From Thainema sp. (GTDB lineage: Bacteria > Cyanobacteriota > Cyanobacteriia > Phormidesmidales > Phormidesmidaceae): a stretch of DNA of 46,717 nucleotides. The stretch covers positions 1-46,717 of the forward strand of contig JBQLZK010000038.1 in NCBI GenBank assembly GCA_052168235.1. The letters run 5' to 3'. A program made the translations under genes and the position numbers. The notes beneath the pieces were generated by a model. The model was not told the origin of the DNA. It was given only the letters and a program-made list of their open reading frames with translations, and searched no databases. Shown in pieces: positions 18,230 to 29,837 of the stretch; positions within the stretch are counted from its first letter, which is position 1, and every line of letters begins with the position of its first letter.

Positions 18230-18868
18230 CTACAAATTGAGCGGTTGAACATTCAGATCCTTCAGCGTGATTGAAAAATGGCGCTGTTCACCTGTTGCAA
18301 TGAAGGAAACAATCACCTCACAGGCCACCGCAACCGTTAGCATCACCAAATTGCGAGCTAGCGGATAATCACAAATATCATCATTCACGTCCGAAGGTAC
18401 TCGGTAATCATCATTCCAAACCACTTCCGCGTAATCAGCCGCAAGTCCCGCGTGGAGACAAGAAATTCCAGCTTGATCGACGTAATTTTTCACTGCTCGA
18501 CGAGAAATGCTGTTATCAAAAACATCAATGATCAACTTGCTCCCATTAAGGAGTTGGGCAGCATTATCTACAGTTAATTTTTTAGTTTCAATTTCGACCT
18601 TTGTGCCAATTGCTCGATACAGATTATTTGCCAAAATTTTGGCCTTAAATGCACCGACATCGGAACGATAATACGGCTGAGTTGAAAGATTCCGTTCTTC
18701 AATGCGATCGCAGTCAATTACCTTGAGTTTGCCGAACCCAGCCCGAGCCAAATTCTCAGCTAGATTGGCACCCAAAGCCCCCACGCCACAAAGAGTTACG
18801 GGATAGTCCTTCAGCTTTGCCATCACCGCATCGGTTCGGTAAAGTTGTTCATGGAGAAAGATAGTCAT
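18230..18868 (-). CDS. ThiF/E1-like adenylyltransferase (ubiquitin-like activating enzyme)
   Basis: GVGALG nucleotide loop, DxDRIEERNLSTQ, GAFKA, IIDVFDN; no CxxC Zn pairs; Cys in DDICDYP; ATGA overlap with upstream gene. Confidence 0.9.
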   Translation of the reverse strand: MTIFLHEQLYRTDAVMAKLKDYPVTLCGVGALGANLAENLARAGFGKLKVIDCDRIEERNLSTQPYYRSDVGAFKAKILANNLYRAIGTKVEIETKKLTVDNAAQLLNGSKLIIDVFDNSISRRAVKNYVDQAGISCLHAGLAADYAEVVWNDDYRVPSDVNDDICDYPLARNLVMLTVAVACEVIVSFIATGEQRHFSITLKDLNVQPLNL

Positions 18869-19692
18869 AGTCCTTCCATCACACCCACTAAGGATTGCAG
18901 GTCAAAATCGCGATCGCGCCCGCTCAAGCAAATACCAGAGCTGACTACCGTTAAGTCATTTTTTGTGATCGCACTGGTATGGCGAGTGCCGTCAGCCATT
19001 GTCCAATCAACTGTCCAGTACTCACCCCGATCCCGGAACTGGTGCAGTTCGCCGCCGCCAAGTTTGAGCGCCTGCCGCAGTCGGCGCTCGTCGCGCTGCG
19101 GTTGGGCAAATCCGGCTGTGCGCTGCGTGACTAACTCATATAGCGATCGCATTTCGGGCGTCATGTCCTTAAACTGCAAGTCTTCAACCGGAGTGAGCTG
19201 CTTGAGATTAGCTTGCAGGGTTTCTGCGATCTCAGGATCAGCCCGCCGATCAACCTCTTCAAACCAGCAGGACTGACCGTTCCAGCGAGCTGTGATTTGC
19301 TCAAATGCTACGCCTTCGGTTATCAGATGCACCAGCACGGGCTTAACAACTTTGAACCGCTGTCGCATATCCGCTTCATTGACTGGATAAGCTAGCCAGG
19401 TTCGATTCTGTAAGCGATAGGCTAACCGCAAGCGAATCGATTGAAACTGCTGCAAGTATGCAGCAATCTGGAATAGATCAGCTTCTTCTACTAGCGTTAC
19501 GGTCTGCGCATCCACAGGCTGAAAAATCCCCCATCCCTCAAACTGCTCGGGTTTCGGAATAAAGGTGTAAACCATGCCTGCAACCCGCGTGCGGACTCGC
19601 CCAGCCTTGACGCAGGGGGCGAGGAATTGAGTTGTTTGCAGGTGTGCTTCAGCACTGGCAATCTGATTCAAAAGCTGGCGGATGTCAGTCAT
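18865..19692 (-). CDS. Hypothetical protein with candidate E2-like C-terminal domain (SSGICLSG)
   Basis: 275 aa; translationally coupled between NADAR and ThiF; E2 assignment is inferred from G-I-C-L followed by an aromatic residue and an amphipathic helix. Confidence 0.8.
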   Translation of the reverse strand: MTDIRQLLNQIASAEAHLQTTQFLAPCVKAGRVRTRVAGMVYTFIPKPEQFEGWGIFQPVDAQTVTLVEEADLFQIAAYLQQFQSIRLRLAYRLQNRTWLAYPVNEADMRQRFKVVKPVLVHLITEGVAFEQITARWNGQSCWFEEVDRRADPEIAETLQANLKQLTPVEDLQFKDMTPEMRSLYELVTQRTAGFAQPQRDERRLRQALKLGGGELHQFRDRGEYWTVDWTMADGTRHTSAITKNDLTVVSSGICLSGRDRDFDLQSLVGVMEGL

Positions 19693-20125
19693 AGCGCAAA
19701 ATTTCGCGAACTTCCATTAGAATTTGTCCCAGTTTGTTCTTGCCGCTGCCGTCTTTGCCACAGCCCCAGTAGTAGTCAATAGGGGAATTTTCGACGATTA
19801 GTTCATTCCCAGTACTGAGTAAAATTTCTTGAATATTGGCATGGGTGCTAAACTTTTGCAGCACAGCTTTATGCATCACTTCATCCTTGACTTGTTCCCA
19901 GTCGGAACGAAGTGGCAATGTGCGATCGCGCCCCATGTTGGCAGCCTGTTTTGGCGTTTTGGTTTGCCGTACCTTTTCTAGATAAGAAGTGCCGACAAAC
20001 TTTTGTGCCTGAAAGTAATGTTCACTGGTTGCCCAATACAGCTCATCGAGCATGAAGCCATGCGCTGAGAAATTGGAGAAGCAACCGTAGGGTTTCTCTC
20101 GTTCAACGTAGAAATAAATGGTCAT
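19685..20125 (-). CDS. NADAR (YbiA-like) family protein
   Basis: FSNF, TSEHYFQAQKF, R.DWE.VK..VM, KF, LL.TG...IVE.SP.D.YWG.G..G.G.N.LG.ILM.VR. Confidence 0.95.
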   Translation of the reverse strand: MTIYFYVEREKPYGCFSNFSAHGFMLDELYWATSEHYFQAQKFVGTSYLEKVRQTKTPKQAANMGRDRTLPLRSDWEQVKDEVMHKAVLQKFSTHANIQEILLSTGNELIVENSPIDYYWGCGKDGSGKNKLGQILMEVREILRYD

Positions 20126-20171: not shown

Positions 20172-20255
20172 ACCCGACAATTGATTGTTTGAGAAGCTTG
20201 GCTTAGCCAAGCTTCTCAAACAATCAATTGGGTTCTTATACATGGACTCAAATCA
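20172..20255. repeat. Palindromic MITE-like element between RNA unit U1 and NADAR
   Basis: CAATTGATTGTTTGAGAAGCTTGGCT-T-AGCCAAGCTTCTCAAACAATCAATTG followed by GGGTTCTTATAC, as in the 10.3 kb and 26.2 kb elements. Confidence 0.7.
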
Positions 20256-20257
20256 TA

Positions 20258-20463
20258 CCTGCGTGCAAGTTTTTAGAGCATTGCGCGTTCTCAGTTACTT
20301 GGGGGACTCCGCTGGTGAGTTCTTACACACTCTTTCAAGGATGGCTACTTCTAAGCCCACCTCCCAGGTTCTTCGCACTCCCCGTTTACAAGCGCCCACT
20401 GCATGGCAGCGTCACGTTTCCTCTCGTACTCGTATGTAGGCTCCACAGTTTAGGGCACGCAGG
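20258..20463 (-). ncRNA. Y-RNA-like unit U1 carrying 23S sarcin-ricin loop and H42-H44 GTPase-associated-centre mimics
   Basis: Terminal stem CCUGCGUGC/GCACGCAGG; AGUACGAGAGGA at 20430-20419; CUGG-GAGGUGGGCUUAGAAGUAGCCAUCCUUGAAAGAGUGUGUAAGAACUCA-CCAG at 20367-20312. Confidence 0.85.
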
Positions 20464-22680: not shown

Positions 22681-24150
<1,470 letters not shown>

Positions 24151-24245
24151 CTAAGTTTTGAGTTAAAAATCAATTCAAGACTCAAAATTCATCATTCAAA
24201 ACCCTTAATAAGGAGGCAGATGCTGCACGCAGCGGTGATGAGTCA

Positions 24246-24433
24246 CCGCGCAAGTTACAGAAGCTAAGTCAGTACTGAGTTACAAGTGCTGAGCTGCTTG
24301 CTCAGTCCTCAGTCCTCATCCCTCAGTCCTAACCTTTTGCCTGCTATGGGTCTCAGGCTTGCAGCGTACACCCCAGTGTACGCACCAGTTTGTGTTTTGG
24401 TAGGGTATGTAAGCTTCTGCGATCGGGGCGCGG
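24246..24433 (-). ncRNA. Y-RNA-like unit U2 (three-hairpin cargo, unidentified; contains a heptamer-repeat insertion)
   Basis: 5' CCGCGC-CCCGAUCGCAGAAGCUUACAUAC ... AGCUUCUGUAACUU-GCGCGG 3'; same scaffold as U1, U3, U4 and U5. Confidence 0.75.
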
Positions 24434-24457
24434 CAACAACTGCCAGTACTAAAAGAT

Positions 24458-24604
24458 CACTTCGTGCAAGTCGAAAAAGCTGTTGTTTCATACACAGGAT
24501 TCGTAGCTTGCTTCCGCGAAGCGGTACCTATGACTGATCGATCCAAAATCGATTGCTCTACCACTGAGCCAGTATGTAAGCTTTTGGGGTTAGGGCACGA
24601 AGTG
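24458..24604 (-). ncRNA. Y-RNA-like unit U3 with embedded tRNA-like cloverleaf (anticodon UUG), T-loop interrupted
   Basis: Stem CACUUCGUGC/GCACGAAGUG; D arm UGGCUCAGUGGUAGAGC; anticodon arm AUCGA-UUUUGGA-UCGAU; T arm AUAGGU[22-nt insert]CGAAUCCUGU. Confidence 0.8.
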
Positions 24605-24608
24605 GGAA

Positions 24609-25340
24609 TTAATTAATTTGATTCAGTTTTTCTTGAATTATTTTGATTTCGCGCTTGTTGCACTGTCGCTTATGGGCAGCATAGAGTTGATTACTAGAAT
24701 GTTTAGATTCTGGTGTAACCGTAGCTCGATGTAGTACATCAAACACAATTTCAGTTGTTGGTACATCTTGATAGGTAATCAAGTACCAAATATCATCAAT
24801 TTTGCGATACTGATGATATGCATCTAGATTCAAACAATCCAACTGCCGATTTGGCTTGGAAGTTGAATCTACAAAAGATGTTGGATCAATATCCTTTACA
24901 TCACAGAGAATACCTGTTTCAGAATGAACATAGAGCTGTAATTGATAACTCCGTGTTAGCCGATATCCTCCATCTGATTTCCGATAAGGAATACCATCAA
25001 TTAGTTCAACATGTCGCTCAACGTAATGCCACACATGGCTCAGGATATGCTGTCCCGATAATGTACTGGTGTCTAGCTGCTGACATAGTTTGCTGTAGAC
25101 ATCGTTCCACGGTTGTCCAACCTGCGATCGCAAATATCGACGTAGGGGAGCAAGATGATCCGAGAAATACTTCGACTTATTTCTAGGTTTAATCAAATAA
25201 GGTCGGAGTAAACCATCTTCGCTTGCTTCTTCGGTTAGTTTATGTAATTGTTTCTTAAAGCCTTTCACTTTTCTCAGGCTTATTCGCATCCCATATCGAG
25301 GACGCTCAATCACAATTTCACTTAAACGATGTTCGCTCAT
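24609..25340 (-). CDS. Basic hypothetical protein (243 aa) within the RNA array
   Basis: MSEHRLSEIVIERPR...DHLAPLRRYLRSQVGQPWNDVYS...LYVH..TGIL; start at 25340 because the longer ORF runs into RNA U4. Confidence 0.8.
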   Translation of the reverse strand: MSEHRLSEIVIERPRYGMRISLRKVKGFKKQLHKLTEEASEDGLLRPYLIKPRNKSKYFSDHLAPLRRYLRSQVGQPWNDVYSKLCQQLDTSTLSGQHILSHVWHYVERHVELIDGIPYRKSDGGYRLTRSYQLQLYVHSETGILCDVKDIDPTSFVDSTSKPNRQLDCLNLDAYHQYRKIDDIWYLITYQDVPTTEIVFDVLHRATVTPESKHSSNQLYAAHKRQCNKREIKIIQEKLNQIN

Positions 25341-25427: not shown

Positions 25428-25609
25428 TTTCATGCAAGTCAGCAAAAGCGATTGACAGCTTACGGTCGCTCTTACCAACAAAGTTGGCAGCGGGCACGTA
25501 TGCTAGATCTGCGAGAGACCTAGAATCACACTTCGCTGGTTCGATCGCTCGAACTTCGCTACCTTAGGACCGTTATTCGTGTGTATGCTTCTGCGGTCGG
25601 GGCACGAAA
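25428..25609 (-). ncRNA. Y-RNA-like unit U4 carrying a circularly permuted 23S domain IV (H67-H71) mimic
   Basis: Stem UUUCGUGC/GCAUGAAA; AUAACGGUCCUAAGGUAGCGAA at 25576-25555; UGCCCGCUGCC...GGUAAGAGCGACCGUAA at 25496-25460. Confidence 0.85.
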
Positions 25610-25618
25610 GAAATCTTC

Positions 25619-25834
<216 letters not shown>

Positions 25835-26008: not shown

Positions 26009-26085
26009 TGGGGTGACTGACGAGAGTCGAACTCGCTAACACTGGTGTCACAAACCAGCCCCTCCACCGCTTCGGGTTCAGTCAC
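26009..26085 (-). tRNA. trnH: tRNA-His (GUG), CCA encoded, no genomic G-1
   Basis: GTGACTG/CAGTCAC acceptor, C73, CCA; CTGGT-TTGTGAC-ACCAG anticodon arm; GCGAG-TTCGACT-CTCGT T arm. Confidence 0.9.
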
Positions 26086-26087
26086 AG

Positions 26088-26161
26088 TGGATTCTGGTCG
26101 GATTTGAACCGACATCTTTCTGCTTGCAAGGCAGATGCTTTCCCAATTAAGCTACAGACCC
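26088..26161 (-). tRNA. trnA: tRNA-Ala (UGC) with 1-nt bulge in acceptor stem
   Basis: GGGTCTG...TAGCTTAATTGGGAAAGC; TCTGC-CTTGCAA-GCAGA; GTCGG-TTCAAAT-CCGAC; 3' CAGA(A)TCCA. Confidence 0.85.
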
Positions 26162-26171
26162 AAGATGAGGG

Positions 26172-26277
26172 TAATATCAATTCCGTGTATAAGAACCCTG
26201 TTTATTTTTTGTGAAATGCTTACTAAGCAAGCATTTCACAAAAAATAAACAATGGGTTTTTAACCGGATTTTATATA
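26172..26277. repeat. Palindromic MITE-like element (family copy 2, inverted relative to the 10314 copy)
   Basis: GTTTATTTTTTGTGAAATGCTT...AAGCATTTCACAAAAAATAAAC. Confidence 0.75.
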
Positions 26278-26280
26278 AAT

Positions 26281-26400
26281 GTCGTGCAAGTTGAAAAAGC
26301 TGTTGATTCATACACAGGACTTGAACCTGCAATCGACTGTTCTAGAGACAGTTGCCCTACCATTAGGCGAGTATGTAAGCTTTTTCGATCAGGGCACGAC
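26281..26400 (-). ncRNA. Y-RNA-like unit U5 with embedded tRNA-like cloverleaf (anticodon CUA)
   Basis: Stem GUCGUGC/GCACGAC and AAAAAGCU/AGCUUUUU; D arm GCCU-AAUGGU-AGGGC; ACUGU-CUCUAGA-ACAGU; GCAGG-UUCAAGU-CCUGU; acceptor CAUAC/GUAUG continues into the scaffold with no CCA. Confidence 0.85.
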
Positions 26401-26402
26401 AA

Positions 26403-26473
26403 CGCACAGACGAGGATTTGAACCTCGAACTACGGTTTTGGAGACCGTTGTGTTGCCGTTACACTATCCGTGC
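26403..26473 (-). tRNA. trnW: tRNA-Trp (CCA)
   Basis: GCACGGA/TCTGTGC acceptor, G73; ACGGT-CTCCAAA-ACCGT; CGAGG-TTCAAAT-CCTCG. Confidence 0.93.
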
Positions 26474-26556: not shown

Positions 26557-26603
26557 ATACTACAATAATACGTATACTACAAAACGTCAAGGGATATACT
26601 ACA
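26557..26603 (-). promoter_or_regulatory. Sigma70-type promoter of the tRNA/ncRNA/Ubl/Ro operon overlapped by three TGTAGTAT boxes
   Basis: -35 TTGACG (26590-26585), 17-nt spacer, -10 TATTGT (26567-26562); ATACTACA at 26557, 26574 and 26596. Confidence 0.75.
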
Positions 26604-26879: not shown

Positions 26880-27341
26880 ATGGCAGACGAACTCAGGACA
26901 TTCAAGATTGATTCTGAGCAGTGGCAGGCGTTCGAAGAGAAGGCAACTGCTAACGGCACTACTGCATCAGAGCTGCTAGAGAGCTATGTACAGCAGTACA
27001 TAAGCGATGATCCAGATAGTAAGTCAGATAGGGTTGATCAGCGCATCAATGCCATTCTGGAACAGCGTTTGGAAGGCTTTGGCGCTCGCTTGTCACAGGT
27101 CGAACAACGCCTAAATGATGATGCAGCTCATCCAAGACAACACATCGGTGAAGGTCTGGGCAATATAGACAAGCATTTGGATCAGCATTTAGGTGATATA
27201 GATGAACACCTGGTCGCCTATCTCGATAATCCAAACGAAACAGAAAAGAAATCTCACCTGCCAAGACAGGCTGTAGAGATTCTAAAAGATCGCCAAGGCG
27301 AGCAGCGACCATCTCAACGCCAACGAGATAGTAACCGTTGA
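26880..27341 (+). CDS. Ribbon-helix-helix (CopG/Arc-like) protein with coiled-coil C-terminus
   Basis: LRTFKID strand, SEQWQAFEEKATANG helix, TASELLESYVQQYI helix. Confidence 0.7.
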   Translation: MADELRTFKIDSEQWQAFEEKATANGTTASELLESYVQQYISDDPDSKSDRVDQRINAILEQRLEGFGARLSQVEQRLNDDAAHPRQHIGEGLGNIDKHLDQHLGDIDEHLVAYLDNPNETEKKSHLPRQAVEILKDRQGEQRPSQRQRDSNR

Positions 27342-27583: not shown

Positions 27584-28042
27584 ATGAAGCTAGCAGAAGC
27601 CCTGATTGTGCGGGCAGATTGTCAAAAGCGGATTGCTCAACTTCAGCAGCGCCTCATGCGGAGCGCCAAAGTGCAAGAAGGCGAGCAAGCGCCCGAAAAC
27701 CCACAGGAACTGCTGGCTGAGCTAGATGCAGCAATTGTTGAACTGACTCAACTCATCCAGCAAATTAATAAAACCAACGCTATTACCTCCTTGCAGGATC
27801 AGACTCTGTCTGAAGCCCTCGCCCAGCGGGACACCCTGCAAACGAAGCGCAATATTTACAGTCGCTTAATTGAAGCAGCAGCGATTCAGCCAACTCGCTA
27901 TAGTCAATCTGAAGTCCGCTTTGTCAGCACCGTCAACATCGCCGAACTTCAGCGCCAAGTGGATACACTGGCTCGCGACTATCGCGTTCTGGATTCTGCG
28001 ATTCAGGAGATCAACTGGCAAGTTGATTTACTCGATAATTAA
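27584..28042 (+). CDS. DIP1984-family coiled-coil protein
   Basis: MKLAEAL..RAD.QKRI.QL..R......VQEG..P.E.P..L...IN.TN...RYS.SE....S......LD..IQ..NW..DL. Confidence 0.88.
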   Translation: MKLAEALIVRADCQKRIAQLQQRLMRSAKVQEGEQAPENPQELLAELDAAIVELTQLIQQINKTNAITSLQDQTLSEALAQRDTLQTKRNIYSRLIEAAAIQPTRYSQSEVRFVSTVNIAELQRQVDTLARDYRVLDSAIQEINWQVDLLDN

Positions 28043-28655: not shown

Positions 28656-29837
28656 ATGTCCTATCAACAACTCAAAATCTCTACACCAGCGCCTGTGTTC
28701 TCCTGGGCCAATCACGACCTGGGACACGCCGAAATCAGCATGGCGAAAAACGTTGCGTCCCTTCCCTTCGTGTTTAAGCATGTGGCGCTGATGCCCGATG
28801 TGCATCTGGGTAAAGGTGCGCTAGTTGGCTCCGTCATTGCTACCAAAGACGCCATTATTCCGGCAGCAGTCGGCGTAGACATCGGCTGCGGCATGTGCGC
28901 CATTCAAACGCCGTTTCAGGCCGACCAGCTTGACGGCAAGCTGAAGAAAATCCGCTCGGATATTGAAGCGGCGATTCCGACGGGCTTTGACCAGAATAAG
29001 GAGTCCGATAAGCAAGTCGATAACTGGCAGGGCTGGCAGCAGTTCAAAGAGCTGCATTCCGGCGTGCAGCACCTAGCGGGCAAAGCCCAAAAGCAAATGG
29101 GTTCGCTGGGTGGCGGCAACCACTTCATTGAGGTGTGTCTGGATACCAACGATCAGGTGTGGCTGATGCTGCATTCTGGTTCGCGCAATATCGGCAACAT
29201 GCTGGCTCAGAACCACATCAAGACGGCCAAAGAAGTGGCGAAGCTGGCCGAAATGAAGCTACCTGATCCCGATCTGTCCTACTTCGTAGCCGGAACGCCG
29301 GAGTTTGCCGCTTACTGGCGCGATTTGCAGTGGGCGCAGGACTATGCTCGGTTCAACCGTGAGGTGATGATGACTCGCTTCAAGCGAATTGTCGAAAAAC
29401 ACCTGGCAGGCGGCAAGCCAATCAAGCCACTGCTGTCGGTAAACTGCCACCACAACTACGCCGAGCAGGAAACTCACTTTGGCGAAGCGGTGTATGTCAC
29501 CCGCAAGGGAGCCGTGCGCGCTCAAACCAATGACTACGGGATTATTCCCGGTTCAATGGGCACCAAGTCCTACATTGTCAAGGGCAAGGGCCATGCCGAT
29601 AGCTACTGCTCATGCAGCCACGGTGCTGGCCGCACGATGTCCCGTAACCAAGCTAAGAAGCGCTTTTCACTGGATGATCTACTCCAGCAAACCGAAGGCG
29701 TGGAATGTCGTAAGGACAAGGGTGTCTTGGATGAAATTCCAGGTGCCTACAAGCCAATCGATGAGGTGATGGCTAGCCAGTCTGACCTGGTTGAGATCGT
29801 GGCAACCCTAAAGCAGGTCGTCTGCGTGAAAGGCTAG
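28656..29837 (+). CDS. rtcB: RNA-splicing/repair ligase RtcB
   Basis: MPDVH.G, VGVDIGCG, GSLGGGNHF.E, LHSGSR, NCHHNY, RKGA, IPGSMG, HGAGR, DEIP.AYK, KG. Confidence 0.98.
   Translation: MSYQQLKISTPAPVFSWANHDLGHAEISMAKNVASLPFVFKHVALMPDVHLGKGALVGSVIATKDAIIPAAVGVDIGCGMCAIQTPFQADQLDGKLKKIRSDIEAAIPTGFDQNKESDKQVDNWQGWQQFKELHSGVQHLAGKAQKQMGSLGGGNHFIEVCLDTNDQVWLMLHSGSRNIGNMLAQNHIKTAKEVAKLAEMKLPDPDLSYFVAGTPEFAAYWRDLQWAQDYARFNREVMMTRFKRIVEKHLAGGKPIKPLLSVNCHHNYAEQETHFGEAVYVTRKGAVRAQTNDYGIIPGSMGTKSYIVKGKGHADSYCSCSHGAGRTMSRNQAKKRFSLDDLLQQTEGVECRKDKGVLDEIPGAYKPIDEVMASQSDLVEIVATLKQVVCVKG

Follow-up and report, generated by a model that had tools for sequence, protein, structure and literature searches.

A probable tRNA mimic sealed into a Y-RNA-like scaffold belongs to a panel of handle RNAs linked to a divergent Ro60-like gene in cyanobacteria and phages

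Y RNAs are described as modular tethers in which a Ro-binding stem is joined to an effector module (10.1101/312249). In Deinococcus radiodurans the RNAs Yrn1 and Yrn2 accompany Rsr (RYPER) and consist of a terminal stem and a tRNA-like module with a 5-bp 'anticodon arm'. They are encoded upstream of the Ro60 gene on the same strand, and Yrn2 is co-transcribed with a tRNA (PMC4201824). The YrlA and YrlB RNAs, also found with Rsr, join a tRNA mimic to a Ro-binding stem beside the Ro60 gene. The module of YrlA is permuted (T-acceptor-D) and has no anticodon loop (10.1101/312249). In Mycobacterium smegmatis, RNase P cleaves YrlA, and CCA is added to the RNA (PMC4201824). Thermus phage phiLo carries a Ro60 gene with two RNAs, Yrl1 and Yrl2, upstream, which are presented as simple CGAA hairpins (PMC12135203). 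What a bacterial Y RNA's tRNA-like module binds is treated as an open question in the field (PMC4201824, 10.1101/312249).

The DNA studied (the window) is a contig of 46,717 nucleotides (C38) from the 7.5 Mb genome of a Thainema species. It encodes an RNA, named U5, that resembles the systems above in carrying a tRNA-like module on a stem formed by its ends. U5 had been noticed as a tRNA cloverleaf with an amber anticodon, and the original prediction read it as an anticodon bait that cannot be charged. The features of the locus are listed in Table 1.

Table 1. Features of the U5 locus. Positions refer to the window; counts of loci are based on 80 loci, with full flanks in 47.
Feature	Position	Strand	Basis or remark
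U5, 120-nt handle RNA with normal-order tRNA cloverleaf	26281..26400	-	fold and covariation; model R1, 131 bits (U5 is itself among the building sequences of R1)
U5, 5' half of handle, with outer stem, a bulge and an inner stem rich in A; predicted site of Ro60-like binding	26378..26400	-	
U5, tRNA body, positions 1-73; acceptor 6/7, A2-A71 mismatch, U73	26306..26377	-	Rfam tRNA, 50.6 bits, and register
U5, 7-nt anticodon loop, CUA anticodon at 26345-26343	26341..26347	-	
U5, CAA at tRNA positions 74-76, degenerate buried CCA	26303..26305	-	
U5, 3' half of handle	26281..26302	-	fold and alignment covariation
tRNA-Trp(CCA), second copy in the genome, ends 2 nt before U5	26403..26473	-	ARAGORN, Rfam
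Three TrcR-type 8-nt boxes over likely promoter	26557..26603	-	exact copies of the footprinted box described in PMC10272220
tRNA-Ala(UGC)	26089..26161	-	ARAGORN, Rfam
tRNA-His(GUG)-like gene, missed by ARAGORN	26012..26085	-	Rfam, 47.6 bits; anticodon read from the sequence
66-aa protein, invariant C-terminal Gly; ubiquitin-like by inference	25619..25819	-	70/80 loci
U4, handle RNA with 23S helix-69 copy	25430..25608	-	25/26 nt identical to 23S of a relative; score 47, shuffle maximum 27
243-aa uncharacterised protein	24609..25340	-	56/80 loci; no Pfam or NCBIfam match
U3, handle RNA, normal-order tRNA (UUG), T-loop insertion	24460..24601	-	
U2, handle RNA whose insert weakly resembles a helix of 16S rRNA	24245..24434	-	score 26, shuffle maximum 25, one of 25 comparisons
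477-aa divergent Ro60 (HEAT ring and vWA)	22681..24114	-	profile to human Ro60, E=2.3e-17; model pLDDT 93.1
U1, handle RNA, 23S GTPase-associated centre and sarcin-ricin-loop 12-mer	20259..20461	-	score 74, shuffle maximum 32; Rfam LSU, 53.1 bits
NADAR hydrolase, not conserved at the locus	19685..20125	-	7/80 loci
275-aa protein, invariant Cys255 in G-I-C-L motif	18865..19692	-	65/80 loci, 8/8 phage loci
ThiF/E1-like enzyme	18230..18868	-	PF00899, E=1.4e-25; 62/80 loci

The minimum free energy structure of U5 is a cloverleaf inside two outer stems of 9 bp and 7 bp (-34.2 kcal/mol, z -2.54; 3 of 200 shuffled sequences were as good). In this fold the D arm, the anticodon arm (loop CUCUAGA) and the T arm follow each other in normal order, as predicted. 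The prediction gave no strand. On the plus strand the folding energy is even lower (-40.7, z -4.25), and energy alone therefore cannot assign the strand. The element is located on the minus strand, reading from 26400 to 26281, on account of the ARAGORN and Rfam tRNA calls and of an excess of G-U over A-C combinations (124 versus 23 cells) when the alignment of U5 homologues is read on this strand. The acceptor is sealed into the scaffold as predicted, whereas the supposed lack of a discriminator and a CCA end needs correction: U73 and the near-CCA triplet CAA exist and are buried in an internal loop of the handle.

Homologues were collected as set 1, which comprises 123 normal-order units from 75 of 81 sources (strict parse). 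An alignment of 48 distinct homologues was built from 41 units of set 1 that remained after de-duplication at 92%, U5 and six phage units. In it 93.8% of the cells are paired, and of the 37 pairs 23 show changes on both sides; none of 500 shuffles was as high, in a test that is inflated by relatedness, a concern lessened by the phage rows and by slid-register controls (29-47% paired). Changes on both sides affect 6 of the 7 pairs of the outer handle stem and all five pairs of the anticodon stem, and compensatory changes are present in every helix of the normal-order units. The structure of U5 is real, conserved and under selection.

A search of the whole genome for the handle motif gave five matches, all in this locus, and the 5' half of the handle is common to all five units. 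In total, 362 handle units were found in 80 cyanobacterial loci. Sibling units in other loci include a permuted T-acceptor-D class. Insertions of about 20 nt or more at one spot of the T loop are found in U3 (24460-24601) and in the loci L006, L008, L012, L024, L025, L029, L041 and L061. The U3 orthologue in L001 lacks the insertion. Both U5 and U1 are followed by a long AT-rich hairpin (26174-26276 and 20178-20246, respectively); the hairpins have flanks in common and are possibly terminators, processing sites or small mobile repeats.

Two of the sibling units carry copies of 23S rRNA, as judged by comparison with the rRNA of a relative (G004). The Rfam match of U1 corresponds to positions 1093-1148 of the LSU model. 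The 12-mer of U1 matches at 12 of 12 positions, which by itself is not significant (p=0.13), and 49 of 51 homologous units contain it unchanged. The inserts of U1 and U4 contain what we take to be the GTPase-associated centre and the sarcin-ricin loop, and helix 69, respectively. Helix 44 of the GTPase centre is a known toxin target (PMC8661411). An assignment of U4 by eye to the 530 loop or helix 44 of 16S rRNA found no support (best 16S score 23, p=0.06). The case for U2 as a mimic of 16S rRNA is weak (Table 1). The genome assembly (G000) contains no full 23S gene, and its sole Rfam LSU match is U1.

The Ro60-like gene is located 2.2 kb downstream of U5 on the same strand. Pfam TROVE does not match its 477-aa product. 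A profile of 67 sequences finds human, Xenopus and phage Ro60 as well as Rsr ahead of all else, including the Ro60 of phiLo (E=8.6e-13 over positions 24-394). Among the Foldseek matches listed for the predicted model, the first 11 are all Ro60 or Rsr, with TM-scores of 0.62-0.69 over its length. The neighbour of U5 has the Ro60 fold. Its family is large, with 473 representatives at E<=1e-30. Longer homologues (640-900 aa) with additional N- or C-terminal parts are present as well (P0003, P0010, P0022, P0028, P0042 and others).

Two properties of Y RNAs are readily seen in U5. A Ro60 gene on the same strand within about 4 kb serves as a criterion (PMC4201824), and the distance given above is well inside it. 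A long stem is formed by the 5' and 3' ends, and helices 1 and 3 covary. The Ro60-binding motif GNCGAA of the 5' strand, on the other hand, is only approximated in U5, by a sequence that is one base longer, and the respective columns vary in the 48 homologues. None of the units matches the families RF00019, RF02553 or RF01053 at E<=10, and Rfam searches at gathering thresholds of the window and six loci revealed no dedicated family for the units. U5 is Y-RNA-like yet lacks two marks of a Y RNA, the motif and a match to the Rfam models.

Yrn1 has a loop of 6 nt and lacks a V arm as well as a full D arm (PMC4201824), while U5 forms a complete cloverleaf in register 1-76 with a 7-nt loop. Both have a loop between the D and T arms at the position of the anticodon; the 6-nt loop, the incomplete D arm and the metazoan-like Ro helix were not found in U5. 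Yrn1-type RF01053 does not match U5, and the partner encoded here belongs to a 477-aa clade that Pfam TROVE misses. The cyanobacterial YrlA partners given in the supplement of PMC4201824 have 531-534 aa, RF02553 misses the units and U5 is in normal order instead of permuted. The original prediction had contrasted the exposed anticodon loop of U5 with YrlA. This is correct and at the same time incomplete, as Yrn1 has been modelled with an exposed 'anticodon arm' bearing a 6-nt loop (PMC4201824, Fig. 2E). In phiLo the Ro60 gene is phage-borne and the RNAs lie upstream; its two hairpins differ from arrays that reach 17 units and carry inserts of tRNA and rRNA type.

An alternative is an ordinary Y RNA function, in which the tRNA fold would serve merely as a stable platform, either tethering the ring to a housekeeping RNA enzyme such as PNPase or gating it, for the clearance of damaged RNA in stress and without any decoy. 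Such a function is established for Yrn1 (PMC4201824) and was observed in vitro for a phage Ro60 (PMC12135203), and near-neutral anticodons (see below) would fit it. It leaves unexplained the exact 12-mer in 49 of 51 units, the GTPase centre, helix 69, the fixed U33 and purine-37, and 17 different inserts in one phage. We consider it possible but rather unlikely.

With regard to charging, none of 121 units of set 1 has a 7/7 acceptor and 23 have an in-register CCA (two units without the 3' motif were left out of this count, and units with a 10-nt tail are out of register). In a second set the 7/7 acceptor is present in 4 of 33 homologues, the in-register CCA in 11 and both in 3 (L117, L118 and L150). 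Irrespective of the anticodon, the 5' acceptor strand hardly changes, and rRNA-type and short units begin with it as well; it therefore looks like a part of the handle. The cloverleaf body of U5 is nearest to tRNA-Thr of the genome's own trn operon (score 78 compared to 62 for the next), and the units likely arose by the capture of whole tRNA genes.

The units could accordingly be stored tRNAs whose handle is a removable cap, with RNase P and 3' trimming releasing a tRNA in stress to supplement the trn operon. The complete 1-76 register, the CCA ends and the three homologues just mentioned are compatible with this, as are the similarity to tRNA-Thr, the units inside full trn operons (L004) and the precedent of M. 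smegmatis YrlA (PMC4201824). Anticodons drift without matching changes of the acceptor, though, while the 5' acceptor strand hardly varies and is shared with units that are no tRNAs. U5 itself has the A2-A71 mismatch and CAA, and many units have stop or unusual anticodons. Storage is improbable on balance. U5 is probably a sealed, uncharged tRNA mimic on a Y-RNA-like scaffold, judging from its register and those of its homologues. Of the original proposal, the sealed mimic is supported, also by the Ro60 fold of the neighbouring protein; a defining role of the amber triplet is not.

The amber anticodon had been given prominence in U5, and there is no support for it as the defining feature. The U5 orthologue of the nearest relative, with 96% identity across 200 nt, carries CCU instead of CUA. 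The anticodons of the homologous units were tabulated, a check that had been proposed with the prediction. In set 1 a 7-nt loop is present in 118 of 123 units, and these loops contain 27 anticodons, many of them stop or unusual triplets. U33 and purine-37 are each conserved in 117 of the 118. CUA is the commonest single anticodon (33/118). Most cases belong to one Nostocales unit type, two other types have it as well, and its distribution extends across several Nostocales lineages. A diverse set of 46 model hits, which includes one ordinary tRNA, two repeated set-1 loci and six model-building units, has 24 anticodons in 44 seven-nucleotide loops, three of them CUA. In disjoint closest pairs, the differences at positions 34-36 amount to 17 in 75 sites and 13 in 63 sites (0.21-0.23 per site), while the four-fold sites of the Ro60-like partner gene give 0.191 and 0.171 in the same comparison. 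When the amber label is placed on the partner-gene tree (73 loci), it has to change 13 times, and no fewer than 10 of these changes are forced. Divergence close to the synonymous rate, the many triplets and the changes on the tree argue that the triplet is nearly neutral. Diversifying selection on the anticodon was rejected, as the disjoint pairs show no clear excess over synonymous sites. The stop-codon anticodon of U5 is likely incidental. A fixed loop geometry with drifting positions 34-36 would fit shape mimicry rather than decoding.

A specific amber function, either as a stress-induced UAG suppressor or as a bait for a factor acting at UAG, would have to explain why the orthologue reads CCU, why CUA is rare in the diverse set and why the label changes so often on the tree. 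The frequency of CUA in set 1 and its recurrence across lineages and unit types speak against full neutrality and for such a function, as do the tails of the amber units of set 1, 28 of 33 of which end in CCA; none of the 33 has a 7/7 acceptor. We regard this function of U5 and the Nostocales amber units as very unlikely; the units may have a mild preference for amber. ARAGORN labels U5 as tRNA-Pyl(cta). U5 shares the CUA anticodon and the 7-nt loop with tRNA-Pyl and amber suppressor tRNAs; it differs from them in its sealed ends, in an anticodon that is not conserved in orthologues and in the lack of PylS in the genome. A pyrrolysine system was rejected, as the best PylS score in the genome is 21.6 bits (cut-off 178.15). 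The arms of U5 are canonical and not of the tRNA-Pyl kind. The expectation that tRNA scanners would miscall U5 as a suppressor tRNA proved correct, and 32 of 118 calls within units are of the same kind.

U5 begins 2 nt past the discriminator of tRNA-Trp, and the coordinates bear out what had been predicted here. The additional proposal that processing of tRNA-Trp could generate the 5' end is plausible for U5; it is not general, as a tRNA ends 15 nt or less ahead of only one of the 119 normal-order units. Among all units this applies to 9 of 362, seven of which follow tRNA-Trp. In tRNA-Ala (26089-26161) G3-U70 of the acceptor seems to be retained only if an A is bulged out, and Rfam indicates one non-standard pair. 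The trn operon of the genome (G000:C99:12246-15023) comprises 22 tRNAs called by ARAGORN, none of them for Trp, Ala or His; the U5 locus holds exactly those three. It is as if one operon had been split, with the same boxes ahead of both parts.

The genome has 55 TrcR-type boxes, and another triple precedes its trn operon. In 53 of 75 loci a box is found no more than 400 nt upstream of the first unit (0.187 per kb, compared to 0.0073 per kb genome-wide) and for 38 of 51 U1-type units a box is found within 60 nt. In L004 handle units are interleaved with a full trn operon. A gene of the DIP1984/DUF6847 family (27584-28042) has an upstream TrcR-type box (27546), with RtcB encoded nearby (28656-29837). 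RtcB is a known TrcR target in Anabaena. The identical 8-nt box and the interleaving connect the units with the cyanobacterial trn operons and the TrcR regulon, which PMC10272220, as far as its description goes, presents for tRNA genes and proteins such as RtcB, not for handle RNAs or a Ro60-like gene.

Several protein genes are conserved beside the units (Table 1). An E1/ThiF enzyme and a small protein with a C-terminal Gly, two elements of ubiquitin-like conjugation (Ubl-E1-E2), are both present. The G-I-C-L motif around Cys255 of the 275-aa protein resembles, as we take it, an E2 active site. For this protein no family match was found in Pfam or NCBIfam, and its profile shows no likeness to the Ro60-like protein; the 66-aa protein has no sequence match in the PDB. 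An Atlas search returned only clusters without a name, or nothing. Other neighbours are local only: among the 80 loci (full flanks in 47), NADAR is present in 7, DUF6847 in 2 and RtcB in 1. NADAR as a repair enzyme matched to the GTPase-centre unit U1 and RtcB as a linked repair partner were discarded because of these counts. A 153-aa ORF (26880-27341) runs divergently from the operon and has, by eye, a ribbon-helix-helix-like start; it has no family match and is not conserved in the loci.

The Ro60-like gene is found in 33 of 301 genomes of the phylum. The strict handle pattern occurs in 12 of the 301, all of which are among the 33, and misses the other 21; a reversed control of the pattern gave one match in the same genomes. 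The gene is furthermore present on seven viral contigs and in one 595-kb phage record. Handle units accompany it in L113, L114, L116, L117 (17 units), L118 and L138 and are absent in L112 and L115. The pattern matches 19 viral stretches. Those with multiple hits come from four contigs, three of which have a Ro60-like gene nearby. Units without such a gene within 7 kb are present in L127/L128 (multiple hits) and L131 (a single hit that is a real unit); the remaining single-hit stretches look like chance matches. A metagenome scan yielded one locus. The loci L117:1580-5800 and L138:4100-7300 of huge phages contain many units, including helix-69-like, T-arm-only and anticodon-arm-only inserts and several that are unassigned. 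In G230, handle matches are located on the contigs C5, C14, C23 and C30 with a Ro60-like gene on only one of them, and the dispersed units may share one ring in trans.

Short terminal inverted ends, the near-neutral anticodon and the patchy range could also indicate non-functional relics, that is, decayed tRNA genes within a small mobile repeat. The compensatory changes in every helix, the strand bias of G-U pairs, the confinement of the handle to one locus of the genome and its maintenance in unrelated phages make this highly improbable.

The best reading, to which we give about an even chance, is a Ro60-anchored, stress-induced panel of baits made of tRNA and ribosome parts. Translational stress would lift TrcR repression and the operon would be transcribed. 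Processing at tRNA-Trp would free the 5' end of U5, and the Ro60-like ring would bind and protect the handle. The 9-bp inner stem pairs leader with trailer, which would hinder RNase P and 3' trimming, and U5 would stay uncharged. The sealed tRNA body would be displayed with its anticodon loop outward as a generic bait for tRNA-recognising proteins. U5 and its siblings would offer copies of sites on which ribotoxins and translation factors act, namely the anticodon loop, helix 69, the GTPase centre and the sarcin-ricin loop, and such proteins may be titrated by the units or tethered to the ring. More speculatively, the Gly-ended protein, the E1 enzyme and the Cys-motif protein might tag the catch.

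A bait panel is suggested by the single handle with interchangeable inserts (up to 17 in one phage locus), by the occurrence of the strict handle pattern only in those of the 301 genomes with the Ro60-like gene, by the copies of rRNA sites in the siblings, by the TrcR-type boxes and by the kept loop geometry. Several observations argue against it. GNCGAA is not conserved and the Rfam Y RNA models do not match. The anticodon is near-neutral without the clear excess expected of an arms race, and a link with damage repair, as RtcB and NADAR would provide, is only local. Viral units exist without a Ro60-like gene within 7 kb, and 3 of 33 homologues have both the 7/7 acceptor and the in-register CCA of a releasable tRNA.

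A further-reaching version of the bait panel, which we regard as doubtful, is an RNA-baited ubiquitin-like ligase. In this ligase the Ro60 ring would swap handle RNAs that copy vulnerable translation sites, including the tRNA elbow, and RNA would replace the substrate receptor of an E3. Proteins that bite would be tagged via the Ubl, E1 and Cys-motif proteins, in cyanobacteria under translational stress and in huge phages, with expanded panels, against host defences that shut down translation. Full-text literature searches listed no description of the Ro60 clade, the handle or rRNA-mimic Y RNAs. The panel of handles and inserts, together with its divergent Ro60 and the linked genes of a putative Ubl and E1, is provisionally considered new.

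The locus accounts for recurrent false calls of tRNA-Pyl or suppressor tRNAs in cyanobacterial genomes (32 in 80 loci) and for stray 23S fragments. The amber anticodon is the least informative part of U5, and the panel of handles and inserts is the finding. As whole tRNAs, permuted tRNAs and ribosome fragments are all borne by one handle, each insert gives a specific, testable prediction of its partner. If the units are indeed baits, they would constitute a natural modular platform for decoy or display and add a new level to the defence of translation and to the counter-defence of phages.
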